Positions 5,162 to 28,006 are shown, numbered from the stretch's first letter. The stretch: 64,000 bases of DNA from Candidatus Gottesmanbacteria bacterium (GCA_963701185.1 OY969569.1:383054-447053), one strand, 5' to 3'. Made by a program: numbers and translations. Notes: a model not told the origin generated them from the letters alone.

Positions 5162-5587
5162 ATGAAGCAAAATATCCCTAAAAAGCGACGTATTTGTGTG
5201 GACTGTAATAGTAAATTAATTAAGTGGGGGGAAACCGGTAAAGGTCGGATTCAATACCGTTGTCCGTTGTGTTTAAAAACAAAATCTTCAACCCCTCGAA
5301 CACATCGGCCACCAACCTATCTCGTCACTCAACCTACTCGGGGAATTATCTCGATTTGTGGTTTCAAGATCAGCTGTTTCAAACTCCACCACACTTTTCA
5401 CTTCCCATTCCTCATCGAGAAGAACAATACGTTTTACTCGACGGTCTTTGGTTTGGGGATAATCTCAATCTTCTTGCTTACAGACTTCATCATTGGCCAT
5501 TTATCATTCATCACTCTTTTGGGAAAAGAAAGACGACCGCTCGTAGAGGTTCAACTCCTCTCTGCGGCACAACATAACACCTTTTGA
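5162..5587 (+). pseudogene. IS1595-family transposase remnant (N-terminal zinc ribbon only, probably frameshifted or truncated)
   Basis: CVDCNSKLIKWGETGKGRIQYRCPLC matches the Zn_Tnp_IS1595 ribbon. The overlapping frame 5260..5577 carries the continuation (QYVLLDGLWFGDN). Total length is far short of a DDE transposase. Confidence 0.45.
5548..5571. repeat. direct repeat of tRNA-Leu 3' end (putative attR)
   Basis: Identical 24 nt to 4506-4529. Extended similarity of 28 nt with 1 mismatch. Confidence 0.8.
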
Positions 5588-5902: not shown

Positions 5903-6724
5903 ATGACTTCAACAATAAATCGGGAAACGGACGGGTCTATAGCGATTACCATTACCATCCCCTGGGCGGATGTGGCCAAAACATACGAGAAGGTCGTTGC
6001 CGATATGGTCAATCATGCGGAGCTTCCGGGCTTCCGCATCGGCAAAGCCCCCCGCGAACTGGTCGAAAAAAATATCGACAAAACAAAAGTCTATGAAGAG
6101 GCATTAAAAACTTTAATCCCGGATTCCTACAATGCCGCAGTAACGGAACAAAAAGTCAAACCGATCGTCAGCCCAAAAATTGAACTCAAGGATGCCACCG
6201 AAAACAAAGACTGGGTATTTATTGCCCACACCTGCGAAAAACCGAATATCGCGATAGGGGAGTATAAAACGGCCATCCAGGGCACCAAAACAAAAATATT
6301 AAAACCCGGCGAAGAACCAAAAAAACCCACACTCGATGAACTTCTTGCCGCTTTATATCATAATGTAACTGTCACACTCCCGTCACTTCTTATCGAACAC
6401 GAAGTAAACCGTCTGCTATCGGAACTTATCGACCAGACCAAAAAACTCGGGCTGACCGTCGAGCAATATCTGGCGTCGACTGCACGCACCAGCGAAACAA
6501 TCAAGAAAGAATATGAAGAGCAGGCAAAACGGACGCTCACATTGGAATTTGCACTTGAGGAAATCGCCGATGCCGAGGGCATTCTTGTATCTGACGATGA
6601 TATCGATGCCGTCATTAAAACCGGCAAAACCGATGAAGAAAAGAAGACACTGGAAAATCAACGCTACTATTTGGCATCGGTCCTGCGCCGCCAGAAAACC
6701 CTTGACTTTCTCGCTTCAATATAA
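5903..6724 (+). CDS. tig: trigger factor, short form lacking the PPIase domain
   Basis: ELPGFRIGKAPRELVEK is the TF ribosome-binding signature (GFRxGKxP). The C-terminal arm domain is present. Only 273 aa. Confidence 0.7.
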   Translation: MTSTINRETDGSIAITITIPWADVAKTYEKVVADMVNHAELPGFRIGKAPRELVEKNIDKTKVYEEALKTLIPDSYNAAVTEQKVKPIVSPKIELKDATENKDWVFIAHTCEKPNIAIGEYKTAIQGTKTKILKPGEEPKKPTLDELLAALYHNVTVTLPSLLIEHEVNRLLSELIDQTKKLGLTVEQYLASTARTSETIKKEYEEQAKRTLTLEFALEEIADAEGILVSDDDIDAVIKTGKTDEEKKTLENQRYYLASVLRRQKTLDFLASI

Positions 6725-6772: not shown

Positions 6773-7381
6773 ATGAACAATACGGCGTTCCAACAGATCA
6801 AACAGCCAAAACGGCCAGCATCCTACACGAATGACAGCATTCTTGAGGCCCTCCGCGATCTTAGCGGCGGCGTGGGAAAAACCGTCACACGGGATGTTGC
6901 CGGCAAAGTTGCCACCGATGCACTTGCGTCGCTTTTCGGGTCACCCATCAAACAGGGAGAAATGCATCAAAATGAAAGCATCGATTTTCCGGTTGAACGC
7001 CAACCACGTCCCCAGATGCGCCGTCCGGAAGTCCGGCCGACGGAAAAAGTACTCTTTCATGAAGATCCGCAGGTGAAACAACAGATCGAAGCGGTCCGCG
7101 CGGAACTGGCAGCACTGTCCAAATCCATCAAAATGCTCACGTCCGATATCCAAAAAGCTGTCGCGGAAGTACCGGTTGCGCCGGGAGTGTATCACGTGAC
7201 GTTTTACGAAAAACTGCGCGTGGTACTGCAATTGCTTCGCGAACAAATTGACGACAGCAGAAGCTGGCTTACCATGCACACCTCACGTAAAAAGAAAATG
7301 GGGTATTGGGGTATGTTCAAAAAGCACGGAACAACCTTTGGCCTCTCCAACGAACGCTCGATTGCCACCAGCGCCGGATAA
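6773..7381 (+). CDS. hypothetical protein (202 aa)
   Basis: Long ORF with no recognisable motif. Confidence 0.4.
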   Translation: MNNTAFQQIKQPKRPASYTNDSILEALRDLSGGVGKTVTRDVAGKVATDALASLFGSPIKQGEMHQNESIDFPVERQPRPQMRRPEVRPTEKVLFHEDPQVKQQIEAVRAELAALSKSIKMLTSDIQKAVAEVPVAPGVYHVTFYEKLRVVLQLLREQIDDSRSWLTMHTSRKKKMGYWGMFKKHGTTFGLSNERSIATSAG

Positions 7382-7389
7382 ATTTCTTG

Positions 7390-7463
7390 TGGACCTGAGA
7401 GGATTCGAACCTCTGACCTTTGCAATGTGAATGCAACGCTCTAACCAACTGAGCTACAAGTCC
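7390..7463 (-). tRNA. tRNA-Val (anticodon CAC)
   Basis: Reverse complement ggacttgtagctcagttggttagagcg-ttgca-ttCACat-tgcaa... with T-loop ttcgaat. CCA is not encoded. Confidence 0.8.
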
Positions 7464-7486: not shown

Positions 7487-7516
7487 TTGACGGGGCTTGC
7501 TATAGGGTGTTATAAT
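7487..7516 (+). promoter_or_regulatory. promoter TTGACG-18-TATAAT; near-leaderless start of the giant gene
   Basis: ttgacg at 7487-7492 and tataat at 7511-7516. The ATG at 7527 is only about 4 nt after the predicted TSS, with no SD. Confidence 0.4.
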
Positions 7517-7526
7517 CTGGCAAATC

Positions 7527-10500
7527 ATGAAATTATTGGGCCGACGGCTCTATAAACTTTTCTCCGTTATCAGCGGCCTCTCACTCGTTTTTAATTCACT
7601 GCTTCCCGCATCACTTTTATCCGTAATTATTGCGCCTCCGGCGTATGCACTGGAAGCACCAACCGGCGCGACGGGGGCAATAGACGCAACCGGAGCGACC
7701 GGCATAACTGCAGATACCGGTGTTTCCGGACCCAGCGGCGCAACCGGAGATGTTGGCCCGACCGGCGCGTCAGCGGAAATCGGCCCCAGCGCTACGACCG
7801 GAACATCCGGATCGACGGGAGCCACCGGATCAACCGGAGAAATTTTAGACGGTATTTCCACCGAGTCAGCGCAAATGACGCCCCCGACAGAAACCATAAC
7901 TGCAACGGTTACTACCCCTGAAAACACGCCTGCCTCTGAAGTTTCCCCGACCGTCAATGAAACCGGTCCACCGGAACAAACAGCAACGCCCACACCGACG
8001 TCCACTCCGACACCCGCTCCTGAACAACCAGAAACCGGAACTGTAAGCGTCATCACGAACCCATCCAGCCAACAGCAACTTGATTTATCAACGTATGACC
8101 CGACAAGCGGGACCCTCAAAAATGATTTTGCTCCCACCGATACGGTTCTTATTATCGGAACCGGATTTAAAGCAAATCATACGTATACTGTAACAATCAG
8201 TTCGAGCGACCCGCCTGCAATTACCAACCAAACAGAGTTTACCGTTACCACCGATAACGACGGCGTCTTTAAACAAGACTATACGCTCGACGGGAACTAC
8301 CGGCCGAATTATACAGTCGTTGTCACCAACCAAGGCGGCCACCTTATCGCAACCACAACGTTTACAGATACACAACCAGCATCGGGAGATTTACAACAAT
8401 GTCGCAATGGTTCTGCAACCTCTCCAAACAATTGTCTTGATTTGGGTAGCGGGCAAGGATGGGTTAGCGGTAATGCAGGAGGATCAAACTCTCATTACGT
8501 TGAGGGATTTTCAATACCATATCGAGAAATTTTGACAAATCTTCCGACTGGAACTTCTATTACTCTCACGCTTGGGTATGACATCACACACAGTAGCAAA
8601 CACGCAATTGACTTCCTTACCCATTACAATAGGTTACAACCACACTCTCCTTTTGGTCACGCAGCAGAGACCATTACTCCTACCGATGGTGTAAGCGGCC
8701 TTTCCGCTACAGTTTCAACATACCCGATTCCGGCACCAAGTTCCATCGGTTCGCCTTCCACCGACCAACCCACTAGTAGTTTTAATTCTTTACCGAGCGG
8801 CGAACGAGTAATGACTCTTTTTGGAGGAACCATCAACAATGTTGTCTATGTTTCTCAAGGGAATTTAACTGATGCGCAAGCTGAAACGCAAATTGCTATT
8901 ACCTTCACAGCAGATAACTCAACTGCTGTGCTTGCTTGGGGTGGTCACATAGCACGCGAAATTGACTGGGGCTTAAATAATTCTGCCGGTGGCATCTCAG
9001 GATCCCCGTATCACATGCGTCAAATAGGTTGGACATTAAATAATTTAGGAAACACCGATAGATCTCTCTCTGCTGATGCTGTTGAACCTCCGAGCTCTAT
9101 AACAATTATTAAGGACGCACAACCAGATAGCGCTCAGGATTTTAGTTTCACAACTGTAGGAAACGGTCTTTCCAACTTTACACTGGATGATGATGGGGGA
9201 TCAGATAGTACGTATTCGAATACAACAACATTTAATAGTCTTCTTGCTGGAACATATACAGTAACGGAAACAACCGTTTCAGGGTGGTCATTAGCTTCAA
9301 AAACGTGTATTTCAGACGGAACGGGAAGTACCAGTTCACAAATTACGAACGGTGTTTCTGTTGTTCTTGTTGCAGGAGAAAATGTTACCTGTACATTCAC
9401 AAATTCCTTACAGTCAGCACACCTGACTCTGGTAAAAACAATTACCAACGACAACGGCGGAACGGCTGCTGCCACTGACTGGACGCTTTCTGCAAGCGGC
9501 TCGACACCAATTTCAGGCACTACAGGAAGTGGCGCCGTTACTAACGCGGAAGTTAATGGTGGAACATATACGCTTTCTGAATCTGGCCCAACAGGTTACA
9601 CAGCCGGTAGTTGGAGTTGTACAGGCGGAAGTCAAAATGGAAACCAAATTACGCTCGCAGCAGGAGAATCAGCAACTTGTACAATTAATAATAATGACAA
9701 CGCTCCTCAATTACATCTTCGTAAAACCATAACAACAGATAACGGAGGAACCGATCTTGCAACCGACTGGACACTTTCCGCAACCGGGGCACTTGGAAGT
9801 CCAACGAATTTGTCTGGATCGACGCCCGTAGATAGCACAACAGGTTTCAAAGCCGACACGTATTCGTTAGCGGAAACAGGAGGTCCAACAGGATATAATG
9901 CCGGCGCTTGGGATTGTGGTGCCGCCACCATGCCGGATGCGACTCATGTTACCGTTCCTCTTGGCGGAAACGTTACCTGTACCATTAACAATAACGACAA
10001 CGCGCCCGCATTACATCTGCGAAAAGTTGTCGTGAACAACAACGGGGGAACAGCTGTTGCAGCCAACTGGACATTGTCATCCTTCGGTCTGACTCCGCTT
10101 TCCGGAACAACTCCTGTCGACAGCGATGCTACATTTAAACAGGGTACCTACACATTGTCTGAAACCGGCCCATCAGGTTATACAGCATCGGCATGGGATT
10201 GTGTCGGCGGAACACAAAGCGGAAGCAATATCACGGTTGGGTTAGGGCAATCCGCAACCTGTACGATTACTAACACTGACATCGCCCCCACTTTAAAACT
10301 CGTTAAGGTGGTAACGAATGATAACGGCGGGAATAAAACACCGGCCAATTGGACATTGACCGCAACGGGAACGGGCGGATTTAGCGATACCGGCGATTCA
10401 ACGACATTCCATACGGTAAAAGCCAACGTAGCATATGCACTATCTGAATCCACGGTTATCGGATATGACGCAGGGACTTTTTCCTGTGACGGCGGAACGC

Positions 10501-13500
10501 TCGTTGGCCAAAACCTGACACTCGGACTCGACTCTGATGTCACCTGTACAATCACCAACAATGACCAGGCTGCACATCTTATCGTTATTAAACATGTTGA
10601 TAACGGCACGACCGGGGCCACATACACCGCAGCTGATTTCACAATGACAATTAACGACGTGACTGCATCAGGCGGAAATTCATTTGCCGGAAGTGAAAGT
10701 CCGGGTACGAATAAAACGTTAACGACTGTCGGATCATATACCGTAACAGAAAGCGGACCTCCAGGGTATACGAAAACGGCGTCAACCGATTGTTCAGGCA
10801 CAATTGCACTTGGTGAAACAAAAACCTGTACCATTACCAATACGGCAATTGCCCCGCAGCTTAAGCTTGTAAAGACTGTTACCAACGATAACGGCGGAAC
10901 GAAACAGGTATCGGATTTCCCATTGTTCATAGACGGAAATGGGGTAACTAGCGGGGTATTTAATTCTGTAACGGTTGGTTCGCATACTGCAACAGAAACT
11001 TCGGATTCCGGTTATTCCGCATCAGTTTGGGGAACGGATTGTGCATCAAACGGATCTATTACATTAGCTCTCGGAGATTCTAAAACCTGTACGATAACCA
11101 ACAATGACAAGGCCGCCCATTTAATAGTCATCAAACACGTTATTAATGATAACGGCGGGACAAAATCCGCAGCAAATTTTTCAACAACTATTTCCGGTGT
11201 AACAACTGTAACCCCGACTGCGCCAGGTGCAGAATCACCTGGAGTTGATAACATTCTGACAACAGTGGGTTCTTATAGTGTCGATGAAGGCACGCATACC
11301 GGATATGCAAAATCTCTTTCAACTGATTGTACCGGTTCAATTGCTTTGGGCGAGACCAAAACATGTACAATTACCAATGATGATATCCAACCGAAACTTA
11401 CGCTGACGAAAATCGTTAAAAACGACAATGGAGGGAATGCTGTTATTAGTGATTTCCCTCTTTTTGTAAACACCACTCCGGTGACAAGCGGAGTGCAAAA
11501 TGGATTCGATGCGGGAACGTATACTGCCTCTGAAACAAATCTAGGCGGATATACCGCAAGCGCGTGGAGCCCCGATTGTGCACCCAACGGATCAATTACG
11601 CTCGCAGTGGGAGACGTAAAGTCCTGCAGCATCGTGAATGATGATCAACCAGCGCATATCGTGCTGAATAAAGTCGTTAATAAAAATCACGGCGGCACGG
11701 CAGATGTGAATGATTTCGGTATTTCCATTGATGACGGTTCCGTTCTATCCGGATCAACTCATGACGTTACTTCAAATACCTCGCACACACTAAATGAAAC
11801 GGGGTTGACGGGTTACGAATTTGTATCACTGACAGGAGATTCAAAATGTCCAAGCGTATTAGGCGGGGGAGTAACACTCAATGAGGGTGAAACTGTCAAC
11901 TGCACGATAACGAACGAAGATATAGCCCCGACGTTACATCTTCGAAAGACTGTCACAAAGGACAACGGCGGAACTGCTCTTGATACAGCATGGACGCTGA
12001 CTGCAACTGGTACGCTCGGAAGTCCGACGAATTTGTCCGGGTCAACACCTGTGAATAGCGGAGCAGACTTTAAAGCCGATACGTATACTCTGGGTGAAAC
12101 AGGACCTTCAGGATACTCTGCGAGCGGATGGACATGTACCGGTGACGTCAAAAATTCGGGCAATTCAATTACGTTAGGACTCAGTCAATCCGCTACCTGC
12201 ACCATAAACAATGATGACAATGCGCCTTCTCTGACCCTTATCAAACACGTAACGAATGATAACGGGGGAAATGCAGCGACTACCGACTGGACATTAAGTG
12301 CTGATGGGCCCACGTCAATTTCAGGCGCTGGCGGCGTGGTAAGTGGCGCAAGTTTTGAAAAAGGTACATACGCGCTTTCAGAAAGCACCGGACCATCCGG
12401 ATATACGGCGGGAACATGGAGCTGTACAGGCGGAACTTTTGTAAATAATCAAATCACGCTCGGACTTGGCGACCAAGCCACTTGTGAAATAACCAACGAT
12501 GACCAGCCGGCAACTCTTATTGTCATTAAACACGTTGAAAACAATAACATTGGTACTGCTGTTGCAGATGATTTTACTATGAACGTGACAGGAACAAATG
12601 TTTCCGATTCGTCCTTTGCAGGTGCAGAAGATCCCGGCACATCAGTAACGCTCGATGCGGGATCGTATTCGGTGAGTGAAACGGGTATAACAGGCTACTC
12701 TGGCTCTTATTCCAATGACTGCAGCGGGGCGATAGCAAACGGGCAAACGAAGACGTGTACTGTAACCAACACGCGGGATATCGGAACAATTACTGTAAAC
12801 AAGGTACTCGTCCCAGCCAATGATCCGGGCCTTTTCACCCTTAAAATTGATGGCAGTGCTGCCGGAACCGGCACCGATGTCGGGAATGGCGGAACAACTG
12901 GCGCAATTACAGTTGGAAGCGATCTCCATTCCGTAAATGAGGTTGGCGGCACAAACGGAACAGACCTAAGCAATTATTTAACAACTTATTACTGTACCGG
13001 TGGAGAGGGATCTTTGCGCGGTACAGGAACAAATATCTCCGACATTGATGTCGGATCCGGTGATGACATTGTCTGTACGTTCACCAACACCCGAAAAACA
13101 GGAACACTTCTCGTTCATAAAGTCGCCGACACGAATGGCGATGGGCAATACGACAGCACAGATCCGACAAACTTCAAATGGGGAACGGAAAGCGCCGTAC
13201 TGGCAACCACCGATATGGGAACGCCACAGACGCTAATCACCGGAAATTATAACGTGTATGAAAATATTGTCCCGGGCTACCAATTCACTGGCTGGTTCCC
13301 GAATGGATTTATCGATGACAACGAAATCCGGTATAGCTGTGAGCGTTTACCGCAAGGGCCCCAATATACCCAGTTACCGACGGATATCGCGGTAACCACG
13401 GATCAAACGGAACTCACCCTGTGTAATAAATTTATCAATCCGATCCTGACGATTACGAAGGAGAACAACACCGGCGGGGCGGATATATCACCGGGCAGTG

Positions 13501-14078
13501 GCGTTCTGTATACCCTGACGGTCACGGCAACGCAGAGCGCTGCGTTTAACGTAACGGTGACCGACCTTCTGCCGGCAGGATTTACCTACCGGGCCGGAAG
13601 CTGGACGGCAAATTCCAACAAGCGCGGGGATATTAAATCCCCACTCGGTCCCACGACAGAACCCACCTATGCTTCACCGGGAGTCTGGAAGCTCGGCAAT
13701 ATGATTAAAGACGAAAGCGTCACCCTTACCTATATCGCGGATGTCAGCAGTGCTCAACAGGCCGGACTGTATCACGATCTTGCCTGGGCGGCAGGGTGTA
13801 AAACAGATACTAATTGTAGCGATGTCTTATCCAATGCAACCGATCCGGGATTTGTCGCCGACCATTATGTCGGAACGCAGGTAAGCATCGTTACCAACAC
13901 ACAAAACGGCGTCTCGCATAACGTCATCAATACCGTTGAAAGTCAGGTCTTGGGCGCCAGCACCGAACTGCCGGCCACAGGCGCAAACACATTCTGGCTG
14001 TATGTCGCATTCGCTCTTATCACCGGAGGAATAAGCATTGGTGCGCTGGGATGGTTTTTACGGAGGAAATATGCGTAA
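7527..14078 (+). CDS. giant LPXTG-anchored surface protein (2183 aa) with N-terminal collagen-like GXT triplets and about 13 tandem Cna-B/prealbumin-like beta-sandwich repeats
   Basis: Signal peptide. The block [13 protein letters not shown]...[11 protein letters not shown] is followed by a Thr/Pro-rich linker. Repeats of about 93 aa each contain L-x-L-x-K-x-V-x-NDNGGTA...DWTLSA...GTY-x-LSE-x-GP-x-GY...W-x-C-x-GG...ATCTI-x-N-x-D. C-terminal sorting signal LPATG plus TM plus RRKYA. Confidence 0.85.
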
Positions 14079-15021
14079 TACATTCAAAACAATCGTTCTA
14101 ACCATTGCATCGCTATGTATTGCCGGTCAGGTGTTTGCCGGATCGATGTCCATAAAAATTGAGCAACCAAAGAGCCCGACAAATTTAACAAGTTTGAACG
14201 TGAATTTTGTCGTGCTGGATTATGCTTCCAATGGCAACATCACGGCAAAATGCTACAAACAGGGTCCGTCTGACGGTGGATTTAGCCAGTTTGGCAGCGA
14301 CATAGCAATCACGCCAGGAGGAAACACCTCCAATTGTACCGCTGACAGCTCGGTTCTCACGAGTGACGGAACGTACCAGTTTTACGTCACTGCTGCAAAT
14401 TCAGGGGAAACGGTAACCAGTAATACGGTGAGCGTTATCAGAAACACCAGCGGACCGGATACGCCGACAAGCTACAGCAAAGAGGATTTCGAATCATGCA
14501 AGTACAAGATTAAATTTCATACTGCCGATGACGGCAAGACGGCAAAAGTTGAGCTATACCGCTCGCCCAACACGACATTTGATGTGAATGCGGGAAGCCT
14601 CGTGGAGACGAAAACCATCGGACCCAACGCCGACGGTGAATTTGTCAATGAGAAACCCGATTGCAGCAAAACATATTTCTACGCAATCCGTGCCTTTGAT
14701 TCAACAGGGAACGGCTCGGGGATACGGGGGGACAGCGAAACGCATACTATAACGACGACAATCCTTCCCACGACGACCACCGGTACCGCGGGTGCCATTC
14801 CAGCAGGCACCGGAGGCAATATATTGGGTGCAGAGACACTAAAGGGCGCTACAGGACCTTCCGGAGCCATTCTGGGAGAGCAAGCTTCCCCCAGCCCGAC
14901 CCAGCAACCGTATACTCCTCCGAAGCCAAACTTGTTTCGCCGCAGTACTATGCTGACGGTGGGAGCCATAGCTGTTATACTTCTTGGTATATGGCTCGCA
15001 AAAAGAAAAAAGTCCGAATAA
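14071..15021 (+). CDS. secreted/anchored surface protein with FN3-like segment and C-terminal TM anchor
   Basis: ATG at 14071 with a ggagga RBS. Signal peptide. [16 protein letters not shown] is an FN3-like strand motif. C-terminal hydrophobic stretch plus KRKKSE, with no LPXTG. Confidence 0.5.
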
Positions 15022-15593
15022 TCGGGCGAATCTCCCGCATATTATTTTGGGTTGCCGGCCTTACGTGCCTTGCCGGTATTACCATCTTGCTTCTGACATT
15101 TGGTCCGCTTGCTACACAGGAACTCCGGTATACAGCCCATGCAGTTCCGAAAGAGATTGTCCCGATTGATAAAAATTTCGGCATCGTGATCCCACGCTTA
15201 GGCGCCAATGCACGGATTATTGCCAACGTCGATCCGTATGACAGTAAGGCCTACCAGTACGCCCTCACCAAAGGAGTCGCCCATGCCCGCGGCACCAGCG
15301 TACCGGGCGCGATGGGGAACATATTTTTATTCGCCCATTCATCGGAAAATTTTTACGATGCGTTGCGATATAATTCCGTTTTTTATCTTCTCCCGAAACT
15401 CACCGCCGGAGACAAAATTCTTTTGTATTATCACGGCGTGAAGTTTACCTACACGGTAACCGGTAAAAAATTCGTAAGTTCCAAAGATGTTTCTTACCTA
15501 CAAGGAGAGTCCTTGAAGTCGACGCTTACCCTCATGACTTGCTGGCCGCCGGGCACAACCAATCAGCGACTTCTCGTATTTGCATCCCTATGA
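14991..15593 (+). CDS. sortase (transpeptidase) family protein
   Basis: N-terminal TM anchor. Conserved His in FLFAHSS. Catalytic TLMTCWP (TLxTC) and downstream Arg (QRLLV). Sits next to the LPXTG substrate gene. Confidence 0.75.
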   Translation: MARKKKKVRIIGRISRILFWVAGLTCLAGITILLLTFGPLATQELRYTAHAVPKEIVPIDKNFGIVIPRLGANARIIANVDPYDSKAYQYALTKGVAHARGTSVPGAMGNIFLFAHSSENFYDALRYNSVFYLLPKLTAGDKILLYYHGVKFTYTVTGKKFVSSKDVSYLQGESLKSTLTLMTCWPPGTTNQRLLVFASL

Positions 15594-16084
15594 TCGCACT
15601 TTCATTTGTATTCCTCATTCTTCAAATCGGATTTGTCATTTTCTTTTTTTACATGTGCATCGCGTCGTTTACCGGCGCGCCGTTTGTGCCGACGAAAAAT
15701 ACAGTTGCCGACGCAATGATCCGGCTCGCCGGTATCAAGAAAGGATCGGTCGTCTATGATTTGGGCAGCGGAGACGGCAAACTCCTCCGGCTGGCAACGC
15801 AAAAGGGGGCCCGCACAATCGGATATGAAATAAATCCGCTTTTGGTTCTTTGGGCCAACCTGCGGGGCGCGCCCACGCTTTGGAAAAATTTCTGGGGCGC
15901 GGATATTCATGATGCGGACATCGTTTTTATCTATCTCCTGCCGTGGAAAATGGAACGGCTTGCCAAAAAACTAAAAACCGAATGTAAAAAGGGAACGGTG
16001 ATCGTCTCCAACAGCTTCATATTCCCGGGGTGGAACATTGTCCGACAGGACGCGGCCCATCATGTTTACGTTTTTCGGATTTAG
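15590..16084 (+). CDS. class I SAM-dependent methyltransferase (small, N-terminal TM)
   Basis: Motif I VVYDLGSGDGKLL. Its ATG overlaps the sortase stop (ATGA). Confidence 0.6.
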   Translation: MIALSFVFLILQIGFVIFFFYMCIASFTGAPFVPTKNTVADAMIRLAGIKKGSVVYDLGSGDGKLLRLATQKGARTIGYEINPLLVLWANLRGAPTLWKNFWGADIHDADIVFIYLLPWKMERLAKKLKTECKKGTVIVSNSFIFPGWNIVRQDAAHHVYVFRI

Positions 16085-16099
16085 TACTACAATCGGAAT

Positions 16100-16669
16100 A
16101 TGACAGCATTTGACGGACAGCAGGAAGGGGAACGGATTCTCTACACGGTAACACCGCATGCAATCCATAAATATCTGGCGATTGCCCGTCTCCTATTTTT
16201 AGCACTCTTTTTCTTCATTGTCCTCTGGGTCATCGGAGAAATCGTCCCGGTCATGATGACGGCACTCCGGATCGCGGGATTTGTACTGGCCGGTATCCTT
16301 TTGGGAGTCGGGTATTGGTGGAACCTCGTGGTTTTCAAAAAATCGAGAACATATATTACCGACCGCAGGATCATACGGTTTGACGTCGTATCGCCTTTTT
16401 TTGTTACCAAACGGGCGCTCTTCTGGAACGAGGCACTCAAAACAAAAGCATATACATCCAATATTTTATTCCGGTCACTCAAAATCGGCACCATTGACGT
16501 TGAGCCGCAGCTTGCCGAGCATGAGGACGTGCGCGTCACCGATGTCTACTATTTTGAAGACCTCGCCAACTATATCGATAAAATATTGTTTACGTTCAAA
16601 AATACGCCCGGCGATATTGCCTCCATCAAGCCCTTTGTCCCCAAAGCCAAAGGCCAGCGGGATTTGTAA
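16100..16669 (+). CDS. membrane protein with bacterial PH (bPH_2/DUF304-like) domain
   Basis: Two TM helices followed by YITDRRIIRF-type bPH topology. Confidence 0.45.
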   Translation: MTAFDGQQEGERILYTVTPHAIHKYLAIARLLFLALFFFIVLWVIGEIVPVMMTALRIAGFVLAGILLGVGYWWNLVVFKKSRTYITDRRIIRFDVVSPFFVTKRALFWNEALKTKAYTSNILFRSLKIGTIDVEPQLAEHEDVRVTDVYYFEDLANYIDKILFTFKNTPGDIASIKPFVPKAKGQRDL

Positions 16670-16730
16670 TCTATCGTACATATTTCCCCAACGATATCTG
16701 CAATACTTCGCGATAGGAGGTATTTCACCC

Positions 16731-17741
16731 ATGAAACGAGTACTTGTCCTTTTGATAACGTATTTATTTTTAGCACCATCTATTTCCTCTGTATATGCCG
16801 CTGATTCCCTCACACTCTGTGTCAAAGAAAGCGGCGTGGTGTTTGCTATCGGCATCGGATTTCATACGACGGAGTGTAAAAAGAATGACAAATTGGTCAC
16901 TCTTACGTATGGCGGTTCCGGTGGAGCAGGGGCAACGGGCGCAACCGGGAATATAGGTTCTACCGGTGCGACCGGCATGCAAGGTATTGAAGGCTCCGTT
17001 GGCGCTACAGGTTTGCCAGGATCCCCGGGGGAACAGGGTTCAACAGGGGCAAGCGGACTTCCCGGTTCAATCGGTGTCACCGGACAGCAAGGAATTCAGG
17101 GGCTATCGGGAGAATTGGGCCCGACGGGCGCAACCGGTCAAGCCGGAGACATTGGTCCTGTCGGTGCTACCGGTTTATCGGGTATACCGGGGGACAAGGG
17201 TGAAACGGGAGCAAGCGGATTACCCGGTTTGGTCGGAGCAACTGGCGCAAAGGGGGATACAGGGTCAATCGGTCCAACCGGTAATGCCGGAAATATCGGT
17301 CCGCATGGCGCAACGGGCGCAACCGGCGTGGCCGGAGAAATTGGGCCTGTTGGTGCTACAGGATTAAAAGGAGAAGTCGGCTCAACCGGCAGTCAGGGGC
17401 CAGCCGGGGACGCAGGTTCGGTCGGGGCAACCGGTAATCAGGGACCGACGGGAGAAATAGGTCCGGTTGGCGCAACAGGAGCACAGGGCGTCATCGGATT
17501 TGAACTGATTACAAACATAACGGACGTTACCGATACGACATCCAAAACAGTTCCGGCTACGTGTCCCACCGGCAAAAAAGTTATCGGCGGAGGATATGCG
17601 ATCACGAGCGATGGCGCAACATTCCGGACCATCTCTGATCAACCAACATCTGACGATACATGGACAGTTGCGATCACAAGAACGTCGGGGAGCTATCTCT
17701 GGTCACTGAAAGTCATCGCAATCTGTGTAAACGCACTGTAA
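16731..17741 (+). CDS. bacterial collagen-like protein (signal peptide, about 60 GXY triplets, C-terminal globular domain)
   Basis: ATG at 16731 with an aggagg RBS. The GXY run spans GGAGATGATGNIG...GAQGVIG. The upstream in-frame part of ORF 16281..17741 overlaps the previous gene and was discarded. Confidence 0.75.
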   Translation: MKRVLVLLITYLFLAPSISSVYAADSLTLCVKESGVVFAIGIGFHTTECKKNDKLVTLTYGGSGGAGATGATGNIGSTGATGMQGIEGSVGATGLPGSPGEQGSTGASGLPGSIGVTGQQGIQGLSGELGPTGATGQAGDIGPVGATGLSGIPGDKGETGASGLPGLVGATGAKGDTGSIGPTGNAGNIGPHGATGATGVAGEIGPVGATGLKGEVGSTGSQGPAGDAGSVGATGNQGPTGEIGPVGATGAQGVIGFELITNITDVTDTTSKTVPATCPTGKKVIGGGYAITSDGATFRTISDQPTSDDTWTVAITRTSGSYLWSLKVIAICVNAL

Positions 17742-17782: not shown

Positions 17783-18115
17783 ATGATTACTGATGCAGAT
17801 GTCAAGAAATTAAAGGCTGTTTTTGCCACTAAAGACGACCTCGTGGCCATGGAAAAACGCTTTGACCGAAAATTTGCCACCAAAGACGATTTGAAACGCT
17901 TTGCCACCAAAGACGATTTGAAACGCTTTGCCACCAAAGACGATCTCATGTCCATAAAAAGCGATATGGTTTCCATGGAAATACGGCTCAAAAAAGAAAT
18001 TGTCGGAGCTGTCGTCGATTATCTTCAACATAATATCATTCCGATACTTAACGAGCACGACAAACGACTGGACCGGTTGGAAAAACACGTCGGAGGATTT
18101 CCGGCAATCGCTTGA
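17783..18115 (+). CDS. small coiled-coil protein with tandem KRFATKDDL repeats
   Basis: Three 9-aa (27-nt) tandem repeats. No known domain. Confidence 0.45.
   Translation: MITDADVKKLKAVFATKDDLVAMEKRFDRKFATKDDLKRFATKDDLKRFATKDDLMSIKSDMVSMEIRLKKEIVGAVVDYLQHNIIPILNEHDKRLDRLEKHVGGFPAIA
17873..17947 (+). repeat. 27-nt tandem repeat (tttgccaccaaagacgatttgaaacgc) x2.8
   Basis: Read directly. A degenerate fourth copy sits at 17821-17845. Confidence 0.8.
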
Positions 18116-18139
18116 CAGGGGTTTCTTATACTGTAGAAT
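18112..18139 (+). promoter_or_regulatory. sigma70-like promoter TTGACA-16-TAGAAT upstream of thrS, with structured 5' UTR of about 120 nt
   Basis: ttgaca at 18112-18117, tg-n-tagaat at 18132-18139. The UTR has a nested stem (gtgcgct...tccgcc-aacc-ggcgga...agcgcac) covering GGAG just before the ATG at 18268. Confidence 0.45.
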
Positions 18140-18267
18140 ATAGATACTTCTCACTTGCATGAGACGTAACTAACCTCAAAGAGAAGCGCGATCTTCGGCG
18201 AAATGAAGAAAAATTAAGTACCGTTTATTGTGCGCTGGAAACTTCCGCCAACCGGCGGAGCGCACGA

Positions 18268-20028
18268 ATGAACGGTTTTTTGTTGGAAAATATGGACCAA
18301 GAACACCTTAATCATCTTCGACACTCATGCGCACATTTGCTTGCGGCGGCGGTCATGGAGCTGTGGCCCAACACCAAACGCACGATCGGACCGGCAATCG
18401 AAAATGGATTCTATTATGATTTTGATTTCGGTGATGTGAAAATATCCGAAGAAGATTTCCCCAAAATAGAGGCAAAAATGCTGGAACTGGTCAAAACCTG
18501 GAAAGGGTTTGAACGAAGAGAAGTAAGCCGCGCGGAGGCAGTCAAAATATTTCAGGATAACGAATACAAAAAAGAATTGATCGAAGAGTTTAGCAAAGAA
18601 GGCCAAAAGCTCACAGTCTTTACATCGGGCACCTATACGGATCTTTGCCGCGGCGGCCATTGCCCGCACCCAAGCCATGATCTGAAATATTTTGATCTGC
18701 TTTCCGTCGCCGGCGCGTATTGGCGCGGGTCCGAAAAAAATAAGATGCTCACGCGCATTTACGGCACCTGTTTTCCGACACGCACGGGATTGGATGATTA
18801 TCTGAAAGGTATAGAAGAAGCCAAAAAACGCGACCACCGGAAAATCGGCAGAGAATTAGGATTATTCACGATGAATAGCGAAGTCGGACAGGGGATAACC
18901 ATCTGGCTTCCCAACGGCTCAATTATCCGCCGCGAGATAGAAGAGTATATGGTACGTGAGCAAACTAAAATTGGATTCAAACACGTGTATAGCCCGCATA
19001 TCGGTCGCAAGTCCTTGTGGGAAAAAAGCGGGCATTGGGATTTATACCGAGACAAAATGTATTCCCCGATGGATGTAGACGGCGTCGAGTATTTGGTAAA
19101 ACCCATGACCTGTCCCATGCACATTCAGTCATTTGAATTTACACCGAAATCCTACCGCGATCTCCCGTACAGAATTGCAGAAATCGGTTCCGTATACCGG
19201 TATGAACAATCCGGTGAACTCGCCGGGTTACTACGGGTCCGTGCATTCACACAGGACGATGCCCATATTTTTTGTACACCCGAACAGACAGTAGATGAAT
19301 TTCTGTCGGTTTTTTCATTTATCCAAAAACTCTACAAAGTGTTTGGGTTTAACGAATACCGCGTCAGGTTGGGTATTCGGTCTGCAAAGGGAAAATACTT
19401 AGGAAATGATAGTCTGTGGGAAAAAGCGCAGGAAAAAATTATTGAAGCTCTCGATAAATCCGGGGTCGCGTACACAATATCTGAGGGCGATGCGGCATTT
19501 TACGGACCAAAAGCCGATTTTATGATCAAGGATGCACTCGGCCGGGAGTGGCAATGTGGAACGGTGCAGGTTGATTTCATGTTACCGGAACGCTTTGGAT
19601 TAAAATATATCGACAAAAACGGTACAGAGCAGAGGCCGGTTATGATACACCGCGCACCGCTCGGGTCACTGGAGCGGTTTTTAGCAATACTGATCGAACA
19701 GTATGCCGGGGCATTTCCGGCGTGGCTGGCACCCGTGCAGGTCGTCCTTATTCCGATTGCCGAGCGGCATGTTGAAGCGGCCAAAATGATGGCCGGTGAG
19801 CTCCAAGGCCGCGGTATCCGGGTGGAGATAGACGGGAAAAGTGAGCCTATGGGCGCCAAAATCCGAAACGCAACGTTGCAAAAAGTGCCGTTCATGGGTA
19901 TAATAGGGGATAAAGAAGTGACGGAGAAGCGTATTTCCGTCCGGACACGCAAGGGTGAAGATCTCAAAGCGATGAGCCTTGAGAATTTTTTGTCCCTGCT
20001 ACAAGAAGCGATTGAGCATACTGTATAA
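18268..20028 (+). CDS. thrS: threonyl-tRNA synthetase (lacks N-terminal TGS domain)
   Basis: Class II core with RDHRKIGRELGLF, the HxxxH/C editing-domain remnant, and a C-terminal anticodon-binding domain. 586 aa. Confidence 0.9.
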   Translation: MNGFLLENMDQEHLNHLRHSCAHLLAAAVMELWPNTKRTIGPAIENGFYYDFDFGDVKISEEDFPKIEAKMLELVKTWKGFERREVSRAEAVKIFQDNEYKKELIEEFSKEGQKLTVFTSGTYTDLCRGGHCPHPSHDLKYFDLLSVAGAYWRGSEKNKMLTRIYGTCFPTRTGLDDYLKGIEEAKKRDHRKIGRELGLFTMNSEVGQGITIWLPNGSIIRREIEEYMVREQTKIGFKHVYSPHIGRKSLWEKSGHWDLYRDKMYSPMDVDGVEYLVKPMTCPMHIQSFEFTPKSYRDLPYRIAEIGSVYRYEQSGELAGLLRVRAFTQDDAHIFCTPEQTVDEFLSVFSFIQKLYKVFGFNEYRVRLGIRSAKGKYLGNDSLWEKAQEKIIEALDKSGVAYTISEGDAAFYGPKADFMIKDALGREWQCGTVQVDFMLPERFGLKYIDKNGTEQRPVMIHRAPLGSLERFLAILIEQYAGAFPAWLAPVQVVLIPIAERHVEAAKMMAGELQGRGIRVEIDGKSEPMGAKIRNATLQKVPFMGIIGDKEVTEKRISVRTRKGEDLKAMSLENFLSLLQEAIEHTV

Positions 20029-22316: not shown

Positions 22317-24284
22317 ATGAACATACTCATACCTGATTCATGGCTCAGAGAATTTCTTAAAACAAAGGCAACTTCTCAACAGATAAAGGAGTATTTGTCC
22401 CTGTGTGGCCCGTCGGTCGAACGGCTTAGAAGACTGTCTTTGAACAAAGACAGTCTTCAAGGCGAAACAGTTTACGACATCGAAATCACAACCAACCGGC
22501 CCGACGCGATGTCTGTTTTTGGTGTCGCGCGCGAGGCGGCGGCGATTTTACCCCGGTTCGGGATTCCGGCAAAATTCGTCAATGACCCCTATGCCCTACA
22601 AGGACTCTCCTTGAAGGACGAGGAGAGTCCTTCTCGGAGCCTTAAACTTTTTATCAAAACCGACCCGAAGCTTAATCCCCGCTGGACATCTATTATTCTT
22701 TCGGATGTCCGCGTCGCGCCTTCGCCCCTCTGGCTCAAACAAAAACTGGAAGCAACCGGCATCCGCAGCATCAACAACGTGATTGACATCACGAATTATC
22801 TGATGCGCGCCTACGGCCAGCCGGCGCACGCGTTTGATTATGACGAAATTAAGGACTCAACAATGATCCTTCGTGAAAGTAAGAAGGGTGAAAAAATCGT
22901 CACCCTGGACGGAAAGACACACACCCTCGCAGGCGGCGACATCGTGATCGAAGACGGCGCCGGCAGACTCATTGACTTGTGCGGCATCATGGGCGCGCAA
23001 AACTCCAGCATTAAACCCGGAACGTCATCTGTTGTTCTTTTTACCCAAACGTACAATCCCGTCAATATCCGCAAAACCTCCATGGCACTGGCGGCGCGAA
23101 GCGAAGCGTCATCGCTTTTTGAAAAAGGACTCGATAGTGAACTGACACTACCTGCTTTAATCCGCGGAATAGAACTGATGGAAAAACTTACCGGCGCACA
23201 CGCTGCCAGTAAAATGTATGACATCTATCCCAAACCGTACAAACCATATTCAGTTACTGTCTCAAAAGAAAAAACGGCGGGCTATATGGGGACAGAACTC
23301 ACTGATACTGAAATAAAAAAAATACTGGTTCCGCTCGGATTCACGCCGTCTCTCACTAAAAAAGAGATTACCGTCACGGTCCCGAGCTACCGCACGGATG
23401 TGACACTGGACGTGGATGTGATTGAAGAAATCGCCCGGATATACGGATATCACAACATACAGACCACATTGCCGGAAGGCGAGCCGCCGATCGTCATACC
23501 TGATCCGCTCCTTGGATGGGAACACGAAATAAAAATACACCTGCGCGATTGGGGATTTACCGAACTCACTACCTACTCCATGATTTCCGAAAAACTCATG
23601 GGGATATTCGGCCTTGATACCAATAAAGCATATAAAATCACCAATCCGCTTTCGGAGGAATGGCTCTACATGCGGCCAACACTCCTCCCAAGCGCGCTTC
23701 TTGCCGTTGAACAGAACCTGCATTTCAGAAAGGATCTGCAATTATTTGAATTAAGTATGACGTATCAATGGCGTGAGCACGATTTGCCCAAAGAAAAACC
23801 GACACTGGTCGTTGCGTGGACCGGAAACAAACATCGCGAGGCCAAAGGAGTAGGAGAAGCTATCTGTTCGATCCTGGGTGAACGCAATTCGGGCTTCGTT
23901 GAAGAAGTTAAACCTGATCTTCTGTCAAAAATGAATATCCATACGCCGGTGACGACATTGACTCTCGATATTGCCGATCTTGTTACCCACGCAACACGGA
24001 ATAAAAAATATGTTCCGATTTCTAAATATCCTCCGATCGTCGAAGATTTATCGTTCATCGTTCCGCAGGGATTCCAGGTCGGTCCGCTTATTGACGTTCT
24101 GTCGCGGGTTCACAAACTTATCGAGTCCATCGTTTTCTTAGACGCCTATGAAAACAAACGGACGTTCCGTGTCACGTACAATGACCCGACAAAAAACCTG
24201 ACCGGCATGGATATCGCACCCATCCGTCAAAAACTCATCGAATACGCCGGAGAAAAATTCGGGGCCTCCGTGGTCACCGCTTAA
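22317..24284 (+). CDS. pheT: phenylalanyl-tRNA synthetase beta subunit (short form lacking N-terminal tRNA-binding domain)
   Basis: B3/4 and B5 domains, then an FDYDEI-containing core. 655 aa. Carries an in-frame REP hairpin at 22429-22458. Confidence 0.85.
   Translation: MNILIPDSWLREFLKTKATSQQIKEYLSLCGPSVERLRRLSLNKDSLQGETVYDIEITTNRPDAMSVFGVAREAAAILPRFGIPAKFVNDPYALQGLSLKDEESPSRSLKLFIKTDPKLNPRWTSIILSDVRVAPSPLWLKQKLEATGIRSINNVIDITNYLMRAYGQPAHAFDYDEIKDSTMILRESKKGEKIVTLDGKTHTLAGGDIVIEDGAGRLIDLCGIMGAQNSSIKPGTSSVVLFTQTYNPVNIRKTSMALAARSEASSLFEKGLDSELTLPALIRGIELMEKLTGAHAASKMYDIYPKPYKPYSVTVSKEKTAGYMGTELTDTEIKKILVPLGFTPSLTKKEITVTVPSYRTDVTLDVDVIEEIARIYGYHNIQTTLPEGEPPIVIPDPLLGWEHEIKIHLRDWGFTELTTYSMISEKLMGIFGLDTNKAYKITNPLSEEWLYMRPTLLPSALLAVEQNLHFRKDLQLFELSMTYQWREHDLPKEKPTLVVAWTGNKHREAKGVGEAICSILGERNSGFVEEVKPDLLSKMNIHTPVTTLTLDIADLVTHATRNKKYVPISKYPPIVEDLSFIVPQGFQVGPLIDVLSRVHKLIESIVFLDAYENKRTFRVTYNDPTKNLTGMDIAPIRQKLIEYAGEKFGASVVTA
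22429..22458. repeat. REP-like hairpin copy 3 (gaagactgtctttgaacaaagacagtcttc), in frame inside pheT
   Basis: 26/30 nt identical to copy 1. It encodes RLSLNKDSLQ in pheT without breaking the frame. Confidence 0.85.
22600..22632. repeat. 12-bp perfect inverted repeat (aaggactctcct ... aggagagtcctt) with 9-nt loop inside pheT
   Basis: Read directly. Shares the caagga/gagagtcct motif seen at 15498 and 55818. Confidence 0.6.
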
Positions 24285-26851: not shown

Positions 26852-26871
26852 ATTGCTATTGTAGCGGATTT

Positions 26872-26900
26872 TTGCAAAAATTGACAACACGTGATATACT
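26872..26900 (+). promoter_or_regulatory. candidate promoter TTGCAA-17-TATACT upstream of aro leader ORF
   Basis: ttgcaa at 26872-26877, tatact at 26895-26900. An alternative pairing is TTGACA at 26881 with CATACT at 26902. Confidence 0.35.
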
Positions 26901-26911
26901 CCATACTGTTT

Positions 26912-26983
26912 ATGAATAGCCAACGCAACCAAAATTTCTTTTATTATTTTACTCCAGTCCTTGGAGGGGATTGCGTGGCATAA
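26912..26983 (+). CDS. putative 23-codon aromatic-rich leader peptide (MNSQRNQNFFYYFTPVLGGDCVA) upstream of the aro operon
   Basis: FFYYF codon cluster. The ORF stops inside the conserved element. Same length (23 codons) and similar ends to the pheST leader. Confidence 0.5.
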   Translation: MNSQRNQNFFYYFTPVLGGDCVA

Positions 26984-27037
26984 ATAACAAAAATTTATAA
27001 CACCACGGAACCCCGCCAAGGCGGGGTTTTTTTGTGG
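26975..27037 (+). promoter_or_regulatory. conserved leader element plus intrinsic terminator (candidate Phe/Tyr attenuator) upstream of DAHP synthase
   Basis: gcataaataacAaaaatttaTaacaccacgg..., then hairpin ccccgcc-aa-ggcgggg, then a T7 run. The upstream segment ggggattgcgtgg (inside the leader codons) can pair with ccacggaacccc to give an anti-terminator. Confidence 0.5.
27011..27033 (+). terminator. rho-independent terminator (ccccgcc aa ggcgggg + U7)
   Basis: Read directly. Located 20 nt before the ATG of 27053. Confidence 0.7.
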
Positions 27038-27052
27038 TGAAAAAACGTACCT

Positions 27053-28006
27053 ATGACTATTGAACAACGAAATTTCGATCTTGAAATATTTGCCGGACCA
27101 TGTTCTATCAACCGTGAGAATATCCGTGATATTTACGCTATCGCGGACATCCAGGTGAAGTCTCAGCGTGGGGAGCTCCAGCGCGCCATAGCCGGTACGC
27201 GGATCGTGGGCCTTAAATCCCGAACTGCGCTTTCACCGAATCCGGAAGATATGGGCATCGATTACCCGACCATTGAGGAACAGGTTCTCATCGTGGGGCG
27301 GGCAGTATTGGAACAAACACCTCCGAGCATCACCATATCGGCGCAGGTTGTGGCGGATACTGATCTGGCGGTTGCAACAGAAGTGATGATGCCGGAAATA
27401 CAAATACCGCATTATGTCGGAAAAATTCCACCGGGGAAGCTGCTTTTATGGAATCCATCGGTGGATCAATTAGGGTGGCACATCCTCCAGACATCGAGTC
27501 TGGCTGCCAAAAACGGGTGGAGGGTGGGAATCAAAAACGGCAAAACGCTGGGGAGTACACTTACCGATGCGAAAGATGAGACGCGGCAGACGCCGGTAGA
27601 ACTGGAACGTACATGGGCGGGACTTGCGGCATTCGCCAAAGGCATGGACGGAAGACTCGTTTTCATCCACCGCGGGGTAGAAGACCCGCAAAAAGGTGAA
27701 TGGCGAAGCGCTCTGGTTCACGAAGTTGCACGGCGCGTAAAACGCAGTGTTCCTTCCGCGAAGCTCTTTTTTGACCCAAGCCACAGTTGCGGACCGAAGC
27801 TTCGTGATCAAATCGTGCCGGTAACAATTGATGCGATGCGGATGCGGGACGGAAGCGGCTTTCTCTATGACGGAATTTTAATCGAAACCGGTCATTCAAC
27901 GACGGATACAAAACAACATATTACTATTGATGAGTTGCGATGTCTGGTTGAGGAGCTGTCGCGATTTCGGGTGTTGAAAATTCCAACGAAAGGCGGACGG
28001 ATATGA
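27053..28006 (+). CDS. 3-deoxy-7-phosphoheptulonate (DAHP) synthase, type I-beta (KDO8PS-like fold)
   Basis: FAGPCSIN (xAGPCSxE motif) and KLFFDPSHSCG (DPSHxxG motif). First gene of an aromatic biosynthesis operon. Confidence 0.7.
   Translation: MTIEQRNFDLEIFAGPCSINRENIRDIYAIADIQVKSQRGELQRAIAGTRIVGLKSRTALSPNPEDMGIDYPTIEEQVLIVGRAVLEQTPPSITISAQVVADTDLAVATEVMMPEIQIPHYVGKIPPGKLLLWNPSVDQLGWHILQTSSLAAKNGWRVGIKNGKTLGSTLTDAKDETRQTPVELERTWAGLAAFAKGMDGRLVFIHRGVEDPQKGEWRSALVHEVARRVKRSVPSAKLFFDPSHSCGPKLRDQIVPVTIDAMRMRDGSGFLYDGILIETGHSTTDTKQHITIDELRCLVEELSRFRVLKIPTKGGRI

Follow-up and report, generated by a model that had tools for sequence, protein, structure and literature searches.

Fibrillar adhesins of Gram-positive bacteria that are anchored through an LPXTG motif, including proteins of the Cna, Sdr and SpaA types, are exported by a signal peptide, present an N-terminal head on a stalk of CnaB-like domains with a Lys-Glu-Asn triad, carry a CLIPPER domain, end in LPXTG, a transmembrane helix and a basic tail, and have a dedicated sortase encoded next to them (PMC12617251). 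A 2025 survey described SpaA_2, SpaA_3 and SpaA_4 as CnaB-like families with predicted Lys-Asn isopeptide bonds, a catalytic Glu and frequent disulfides, and DUF11, a CnaA-like isopeptide domain for which a crystal structure exists, now bears the name CLIPPER (PMC12617251). A sortase family is reported to be nearly ubiquitous in the Microgenomates (PMC6744442), a group of the Candidate Phyla Radiation (CPR). Here we analyze a 64,000-nucleotide stretch of DNA (hereafter the window; GCA_963701185.1 OY969569.1:383054-447053) from an uncultured member of this group whose closest named relatives are Candidatus Gottesmanbacteria, and in which positions 7,527 to 17,741 encode a giant LPXTG protein, a 316-residue protein that we call p316, a sortase and several smaller proteins. 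We place a probability of about 0.7 on the proposal that the first three genes constitute a sortase-anchored, cross-linked fibre cassette typical of Microgenomates-group CPR. The mechanism, sortase anchoring of an isopeptide-stabilised fibrillar adhesin, is well known and is met here in a CPR lineage, and two of its parts, the lineage-specific tandem-FN3 protein p316 and a widespread head domain, are uncharacterised.

Gene order across related genomes defines the cassette. Synteny was compared in 80 loci around homologues of the methyltransferase gene that follows the sortase gene in the window, plus 12 loci around p316 homologues. The cassette occurs in ten loci, each from a different genome, under Gottesman-, Levy- and Daviesbacteria labels (the window, or L001, and L007, L008, L009, L082, L084, L086, L088, L090 and L092), and in each of them the giant gene lies immediately upstream, and the sortase gene immediately downstream, of p316. 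In the window the giant gene (7527..14078, plus strand), p316 (14071..15021, plus strand) and the sortase gene (14991..15593, plus strand) overlap one another: the p316 start codon lies 8 nt inside the end of the giant gene, an overlap also found in L082, L084, L086 and L092, and the sortase gene overlaps p316 by 31 nt. A signal peptide, a CLIPPER domain and a sorting signal are common to all ten giants, and an Ig-like domain to all but that of L007, while the middle of the protein differs at every locus, with, for example, VWA and SdrD_B domains in L082 and twelve SpaA_2 domains in L084. Even L088, the genome closest to the window (p316 77% and methyltransferase 81% identical), encodes a different 2420-residue passenger that has no head domain. 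As judged from this gene order, the functional unit is the giant, p316 and the sortase, and the genes for the methyltransferase, a membrane protein (p189) and a collagen-like protein that lie downstream are neighbours only.

A promoter-like site (7487..7516, plus strand), consisting of TTGACG, an 18-nt spacer and an extended -10 element, TGTTATAAT, ends about 10 nt before the ATG of the giant gene and matches 11 of 12 consensus positions. Such sites are no more numerous in the region than in shuffled controls, so the main support for a promoter comes from conservation across genomes, the block being kept upstream of the giants in the window, L088 and L092. The 5′ leader of the window gene is ~41 nt shorter than those in L088 and L092. 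No plus-strand terminator-like site was found between the giant gene and thrS.

The giant protein (2183 residues, as defined by its open reading frame, translation and matches to Pfam and the LPXTG anchor model) is a head-stalk-anchor fibrillar adhesin, an assignment made because its domain content (head, CnaB-like stalk, CLIPPER domain and anchor) follows the standard plan. A preliminary description of this DNA had proposed a sortase-dependent surface locus built on a giant LPXTG protein with a CnaB-like stalk, and that proposal, together with the boundaries of the reading frame and its LPATG, membrane helix and RRKYA ending, is borne out. The protein begins with a Sec signal peptide (residues 1-41; 7527..7649, plus strand) for which cleavage is predicted, from sequence, after AYA; this segment aligns in 10/10 giants and ends in A-Y/F-A, followed by Q/L-E. 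It is succeeded by a low-complexity spacer (7665..8036, plus strand) made of imperfect G-X-T triplets (residues 47-106) and a Thr/Pro-rich linker (residues 107-170). The triplets had been taken for a collagen-like N-terminus, but Gly starts only 16 of 20 in-register triplets, the longest clean run is six triplets, and the Pfam Collagen model scores 21.6, below its cutoff of 27.2. Since Gly is missing from four of the 20 triplets, and since the other giants have only Thr/Pro linkers at this position of the alignment, we read the stretch as a probable spacer and not as a triple helix. An Ig-like domain (residues 171-285; 8037..8381, plus strand), delimited by phmmer, the alignment and an AlphaFold2 (AF2) model in which it is all-beta, is matched by phmmer in 8/9 of the other giants; the exception is that of L007, whose N-terminus aligns poorly.

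Between the Ig-like domain and the stalk lies a 236-residue head domain (residues 286-521; 8382..9089, plus strand), a beta-sandwich from a widespread family that has no annotation: searches of Pfam, NCBIfam and PDB sequences returned no match to it. Homologues are nonetheless numerous, with 732 at an E-value of 1e-3 or better and identities typically of 44-68% (about 45-70% for the family across many bacterial phyla and some archaea), and exhaustive phmmer against 1.84 billion representatives recovered 2172 clusters, 538 of them at 1e-30 or better. Named sources include Chloroflexi, Actinobacteria, Bacteroidetes (with type IX secretion system, T9SS, sorting domains), Planctomycetes, Gammaproteobacteria, Zixibacteria and a Methanomassiliicoccales archaeon. 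Almost all carriers, proteins of ~200 to 2700 residues, have the domain near their N-terminus; they are surface proteins with differing stalks and anchors (LPXTG or T9SS). Seven positions are invariant in the family alignment (Q291, N294, H323, E326, D362, W471 and H474 in the numbering of the giant) and five more are nearly so (H373, H378, E381, H496 and R498); this pattern, in which His, Glu and Asp residues are among those that never vary, is suggestive of a site for metal binding or catalysis. A thioester-domain reading was dropped, as the Cys of the ‘QQCRNG’ sequence is absent from the family consensus ‘LDQxRNG’.

The stalk (residues 522-1969; 9090..13433, plus strand) comprises 15 CnaB-like domains of the prealbumin fold, as delimited by Pfam and manual segmentation: a SpaA_4 domain (residues 522-628), twelve SpaA_2 domains (residues 629-1750) and two more divergent domains (residues 1751-1969). 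Pfam reports 13 SpaA_2 stretches (E-value 1.5e-189) and a SpaA_4 match of 42.1 bits against a cutoff of 27.3, with SpaA_3 and SpaA matches below threshold; a sequence search found no solved homologue of a SpaA_2 repeat. The triad is complete in all 15 domains (Lys in LxLxK of the first strand, Glu in ‘TLSE(T/S)G’ and Asn in CTITN of the last strand), each of which has exactly two Cys, in agreement with the paired Cys that had been noted earlier. A Lys-Asn isopeptide bond and a disulfide are therefore probably formed in each stalk domain, as predicted from these residues. The repeats had also been described as near-identical, which they are not: pairwise identity among the SpaA_2 units is 30-63%, the longest exact DNA word common to two repeats is 17 nt, and Tandem Repeats Finder detects no array in this region. 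Because the repeats are this divergent and share so little exact sequence, collapse of the array is unlikely, and an assembly artefact was rejected. A separate Logan assembly of run ERR10755943 is identical to the window over 10,064 bp, although it does not count as an independent sample because it may derive from the same one.

The C-terminal module is the most conserved part of the cassette giants. Its CLIPPER/DUF11 domain (residues 1970-2140; 13434..13946, plus strand) scores 35.5 bits with PF01345 (cutoff 24.6) and 28 with TIGR01451 (cutoff 24), and it is matched by phmmer in 9/9 of the other giants. The cell-wall sorting signal (13947..14075, plus strand) consists of LPATG at residues 2148-2152, a 26-residue hydrophobic stretch and the tail RRKYA, and it passes TIGR01167 (16.8 against a cutoff of 15.9). 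A consensus of VLGAS[TI]xLP[AS]TGA followed by a membrane helix and a basic tail is present in 10/10 giants, and among the reading frames of the window only the giant has a sorting signal. Set beside the Gram-positive fibrillar adhesins introduced above, this protein shares the entire plan from signal peptide to basic tail, including the neighbouring sortase, but differs in its CPR (Microgenomates) host, in a head that lacks Pfam, NCBIfam or PDB matches, in the Cys pair of every stalk domain, and in the presence of the p316 gene between those of substrate and sortase.

Two further observations concern the giant and p316. A motif of the form (Q/E)(I/V)(L/M)-(D)-G recurs as ‘GEILDGIST’ after the N-terminal spacer of the giants (residues ~100-112), as ‘QVLGAST’ just before LPATG (residues 2139-2146) and twice in p316 (residues ~247-275). 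Substrates of another type of CPR sortase (L005, L006 and L011) have it as ‘VMGLAATS’. The motif may extend the sequence that the sortase recognizes, or it may mark a site of processing. In addition, genes for a YfhO-family protein and a TMEM260-like protein O-mannosyltransferase lie ~30 kb away (46644-50637), and the Thr/Pro-rich linkers of the giant and p316 would be plausible targets of O-glycosylation.

The sortase (200 residues) was correctly recognized from its TLMTCWP motif, and it matches the Pfam family (PF04203) at 84.8 bits against a cutoff of 26.6 (E-value 5.4e-24). It has an N-terminal membrane anchor and a complete catalytic triad on alignment, formed by H116 (FAHSS), C184 (TLMTCWP) and R193 (NQRLL). 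Of these, C184 and R193 can be aligned with class C structures and H116 was assigned from an alignment of CPR sortases, because phmmer shifts that loop; the triad columns are kept in seven CPR sortases of two types. Its closest relatives in the PDB are class C enzymes (8t28 at 4.5e-9), and class C is also the best of the NCBIfam classes, at 61.5 against a cutoff of 160, with classes D, E and F likewise below their cutoffs; only the generic TIGR01076 is passed (46.5 against 39.35). The window sortase thus has in common with class C sortases (PDB 8t28, 3rbi) its best sequence matches, the His-Cys-Arg triad, the TLxTC motif and the membrane anchor, but it differs in falling far below the class cutoff, in lacking room for the class C lid, since only ~25 residues separate the membrane helix from the first strand of the catalytic domain, and in having a substrate with no recognisable pilin motif. 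The acceptor nucleophile is uncertain because the enzyme lies below all class cutoffs and its nearest solved relatives are pilus-polymerising class C sortases. The usual peptidoglycan acceptor should exist, as the window encodes a class A penicillin-binding protein (24281-27067).

The remaining cassette protein, p316, belongs to a family of 198 members of ~300-350 residues, all named members of which come from the Microgenomates group and none of which has a Pfam annotation. In an alignment of 44 sequences, a signal peptide and a conserved N-terminal strand (IEQPKSPTN) precede two domains, both of which have an invariant pair of Cys; a Thr-rich linker then leads to two G-x-(V/I)-L-G motifs, and the protein closes with a membrane helix and a tail of Lys and Arg. 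The earlier assignment of p316 as an FN3-like anchored protein is upheld as to fold, which is a tandem FN3 in the AF2 model, and amended as to anchor, which is the C-terminal membrane helix without an LPXTG motif. A role as a canonical sortase substrate was rejected, as LPXTG is lacking and close relatives have only a degenerate ‘VLGA...G[AS]TG’ ~40 residues before the helix.

The position of p316 between adhesin and sortase raises two other readings of how the fibre is held, both of which we regard as improbable. One is a covalent two-protein ‘mini-pilus’ in which the LPAT carboxyl of the giant would be joined to K137 or K34 of p316, giving a membrane-tethered base instead of, or before, attachment to the wall. 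The strict co-occurrence and translational coupling of p316 with the giant and sortase at 10/10 loci would fit such a base, as would the class C affinities of the sortase in both PDB and NCBIfam, a second sortase in some loci (L082 and L086) as in pilus islands, and VWA domains in some giants that are reminiscent of tip pilins. The candidate acceptors are conserved, with K137 invariant in the inter-domain linker and K34 kept in at least 90% of the 44 sequences within a hydrophobic-x-hydrophobic-x-x-P-K context that is loosely pilin-motif-like; however, the substrates contain no canonical YPKN-type pilin motif or E-box, and a conserved Lys is all that p316 offers. The short segment ahead of the catalytic domain, without space for a lid, the lack of an LPXTG in p316 and the presence of peptidoglycan synthesis in the organism also argue against polymerisation of this kind. 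If it were true, this would be a Microgenomates-specific, sortase-built, membrane-based covalent fibre of two proteins, tipped by a member of the unannotated head family.

The other reading, also unlikely, takes p316 as a non-covalent tether or terminator that docks the CLIPPER module of the giant, leaving the sortase only to release or fix the fibre. It is modelled on PamR of the CPR Pam pilus, an RbmA-like protein that combines two FnIII domains with a C-terminal helix, has an additional strand at its N-terminus, and is a proposed filament-to-membrane tether (bioRxiv 10.64898/2026.03.03.709456). The AF2 model gives p316 the architecture described for PamR, and the C-terminal module is the one part of the giants that is kept alongside p316 in every cassette locus. 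The likeness is nevertheless one of architecture, drawn from a comparison by description with PamR and Vibrio cholerae RbmA; tandem FN3 domains with a membrane helix are a common arrangement, and the cassette loci showed neither Pam pilins nor chaperones. Moreover, Pam pili assemble by donor-strand exchange with chaperones and without a sortase, and the p316 family is seen only in the Microgenomates group.

A third alternative, that of the preliminary description, widens the system instead of altering its base: the linkage of sortase, methyltransferase, p189 and collagen-like protein was taken as a single attachment system in which the coupled methyltransferase would modify the adhesin or the sorting machinery. 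The observation at its root is correct, in that the methyltransferase ATG at 15590 overlaps the sortase stop codon as ATGA. The same overlap occurs in L088 and the two genes are adjacent in L007-L009, making five related genomes with neighbouring copies; no plus-strand terminator-like site lies between the giant gene and thrS, and the Lys-rich cytoplasmic tails RRKYA and KRKKSE and the sortase N-terminus MARKKKK are possible targets. In seven other genomes, however, the pair is separate or incomplete. L082, L084, L086 and L090 lack the genes for the methyltransferase, p189 and the collagen-like protein within 10 kb of the cassette; three genes intervene between sortase and methyltransferase in L092, where the same 4-nt overlap involves a 5′-nucleotidase gene; and L002 and L006 have the methyltransferase without the cassette, directly after a backbone gene in L006. 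Only 6/80 methyltransferase-homologue loci, all from Microgenomates-type CPR by synteny, have a sortase-like reading frame within 10 kb, and the 74/80 that lack one include Acidobacteriota, Myxococcota, Chloroflexota and archaea, although the search used a hidden Markov model built from two CPR sortase types and could miss very divergent sortases. The collagen gene is absent from the closest genome, L088, and the ten cassette loci share only the giant, p316 and sortase. The functional pairing was therefore rejected on synteny, and we consider a single system of this breadth very improbable.

The properties of the methyltransferase (164 residues; 15590..16084, plus strand) point the same way. 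It has the class I S-adenosylmethionine (SAM) motif I as DLGSGDG at residue 57, preceded by the pre-methyltransferase motif APFVPT, and its matches in the PDB are 5bxy (3.3e-17) and the Sulfolobus islandicus aKMT structures 5fa8 (7.1e-16) and 5jwj (1.2e-14), the last two over residues 30-150. FAM173A and FAM173B are mitochondrial enzymes with an N-terminal membrane helix that methylate membrane proteins (PMC9006661). Whole-catalytic-domain alignment with aKMT at ~1e-15, the shared (A/V)P(F/Y)VPT and DLGSGDG motifs, and an N-terminal membrane helix like that of FAM173 predict a membrane-anchored lysine methyltransferase of the aKMT/FAM173 type. The window enzyme differs from these in being bacterial (CPR), in usually being paired with the two-helix protein p189, and in scoring 52.2 bits with NF041081, the archaeal lysine methyltransferase equivalog, below its cutoff of 200. 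Its catalytic domain is predicted to be cytoplasmic, because positive charges follow the helix and SAM is cytoplasmic, and for that reason it would not be expected to reach the exported adhesin.

The more regular partner of the methyltransferase is p189 (16100..16669, plus strand), which has two membrane helices and a C-terminal domain that is rich in Lys and highly conserved, and which follows the methyltransferase in eight genomes (the window, L003, L004, L006, L007, L009, L088 and L092). The protein had been described as a bPH membrane protein, an assignment that finds no support: neither it nor seven orthologues match bPH_2 (PF03703) at E-values up to 10, and there was no match in Pfam, NCBIfam or the PDB, although a remote PH-like fold is still possible. 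It is possible that p189 is a substrate or partner of the methyltransferase, and by analogy the pair could be a bacterial counterpart of the FAM173 enzymes that act on membrane proteins. A defence-system role for the small genes likewise found no support, PADLOC giving only generic methyltransferase similarity.

Several points weigh against the three-gene fibre cassette as the explanation of this locus. The sortase, as far as its sequence tells, is under every curated class cutoff and has class C enzymes, not housekeeping ones, as its nearest solved relatives; the role of p316 is a guess of low certainty; and a lineage-specific link between sortase and methyltransferase is possible, in view of the ATGA overlap in the window and L088 and the adjacency in L007-L009. 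In addition, the ten cassette loci are a small and phylogenetically clustered sample, and the organism is uncultured, with every step of the mechanism predicted here from sequence.

Taken with these points, the three-gene cassette would operate as follows. The genes would be co-transcribed from the conserved promoter at 7487 and could be coupled in translation through the 8-nt and 31-nt overlaps. Sec would export the giant, whose C-terminal helix and RRKYA tail would keep it in the membrane, as is expected of a canonical sorting signal. Outside the cell, the 15 CnaB-like domains and the CLIPPER domain would fold, each probably locked by isopeptide and disulfide bonds at the triads and Cys pairs described above, to give a protease- and force-resistant stalk of perhaps 60 nm. 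The membrane-anchored sortase, acting through H116, C184 and R193, would cut LPAT|G and join the fibre to a peptidoglycan precursor, and p316 may serve at the fibre base as an accessory or tether, a role to which we attach low certainty. The stalk would display the conserved 236-residue head; head and stalk are swapped even between close genomes, as expected for a surface or partner-recognition protein.

The genomic setting of the cassette is variable. The backbone order in related genomes is tig, DUF5660, tRNA-Val, a first island, the methyltransferase, p189, a second island and thrS, and in the window the first of these genes are found at 5903-6724 (trigger factor, tig), 6773-7381 (DUF5660 protein) and 7389-7463 (tRNA-Val(CAC), minus strand), all upstream of the giant. 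The variable region adjoins tRNA-Val in ten tig-backbone genomes, six of which have the cassette there. The tRNA gene is on the minus strand in the window and on the plus strand at the same position in ten related loci, which points to a local inversion of ~75 nt. A 141-residue reading frame at 5162-5587 has a sub-threshold match (26.7 bits, cutoff 28) to the N-terminal zinc-binding domain of the IS1/IS1595 type, and may be a transposase remnant near the variable island. In one genome (L090/L091, 11612-12307) the cassette is located elsewhere, with a cluster of type IV pilus genes and a Y1 (IS200-like) transposase beside it, a placement that is consistent with cassette mobility. A second type of sortase cassette lies near the same methyltransferase in L005 (4202-7914), L006 (11860-15450) and L011 (5494-8973); its sortase has the motif TLFTCSGF and is preceded by proteins of ~770 and ~205 residues in which a GLAATS-like motif at the C-terminus is followed by a helix and a basic tail, which suggests an LAxTS/G-type sorting signal.

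On the thrS side, a collagen-like protein had been reported from the sequence, and it is real, with 66 uninterrupted GXY triplets (Pfam Collagen 2.3e-29, 101.4 against a cutoff of 27.2); its gene is now placed at 16731..17741 (plus strand, 336 residues) and does not occupy the whole reading frame from 16281. Like the bacterial collagen-like proteins Scl1/Scl2, Lcl and BclA, it combines a signal peptide and a long uninterrupted GXY region with a small non-collagen globular domain, here an unannotated C-terminal domain of 87 residues; it differs from them in having no LPXTG or other anchor and in scoring below every equivalog cutoff. The gene is in no other locus examined. Compared with L088, in which the thrS leader directly follows p189, this gene and that of a 110-residue repeat protein (17783-18115, plus strand) make up an insertion of ~1.45 kb. 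As to a phage origin, tblastn gave only generic, uninformative GXY matches to tail-fibre-like proteins. The 110-residue reading frame contains a perfect 27-nt tandem repeat in 2.7 copies (17873-17944) that encodes FATKDDLKR, and its only match is a weak, sub-threshold one to BspC. Upstream of thrS (18268-20028, plus strand), a block that resembles a regulatory leader (18125-18265; ~12580-12680 in L088) is kept between genomes, in which no T-box or other Rfam family was found at the gathering threshold.

CPR bacteria, or Patescibacteria, account for a substantial part of bacterial diversity, and their lifestyle is thought to be one of attachment to other cells. How they attach is poorly understood beyond type IV pili and the recently described Pam pili. 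The analysis of this locus defines a compact, recurrent module composed of a sortase, a hypervariable giant fibre and an uncharacterised tandem-FN3 membrane protein, and it allows the idea of a sortase-coupled methyltransferase to be set aside. Concrete, clonable targets are the sortase, together with its LPATG peptide, the ectodomain of p316, and the head domain, whose family spans over 2000 protein clusters in numerous bacterial and archaeal phyla and has no Pfam, NCBIfam or PDB match. A role for this cassette in episymbiotic attachment is a reasonable guess.

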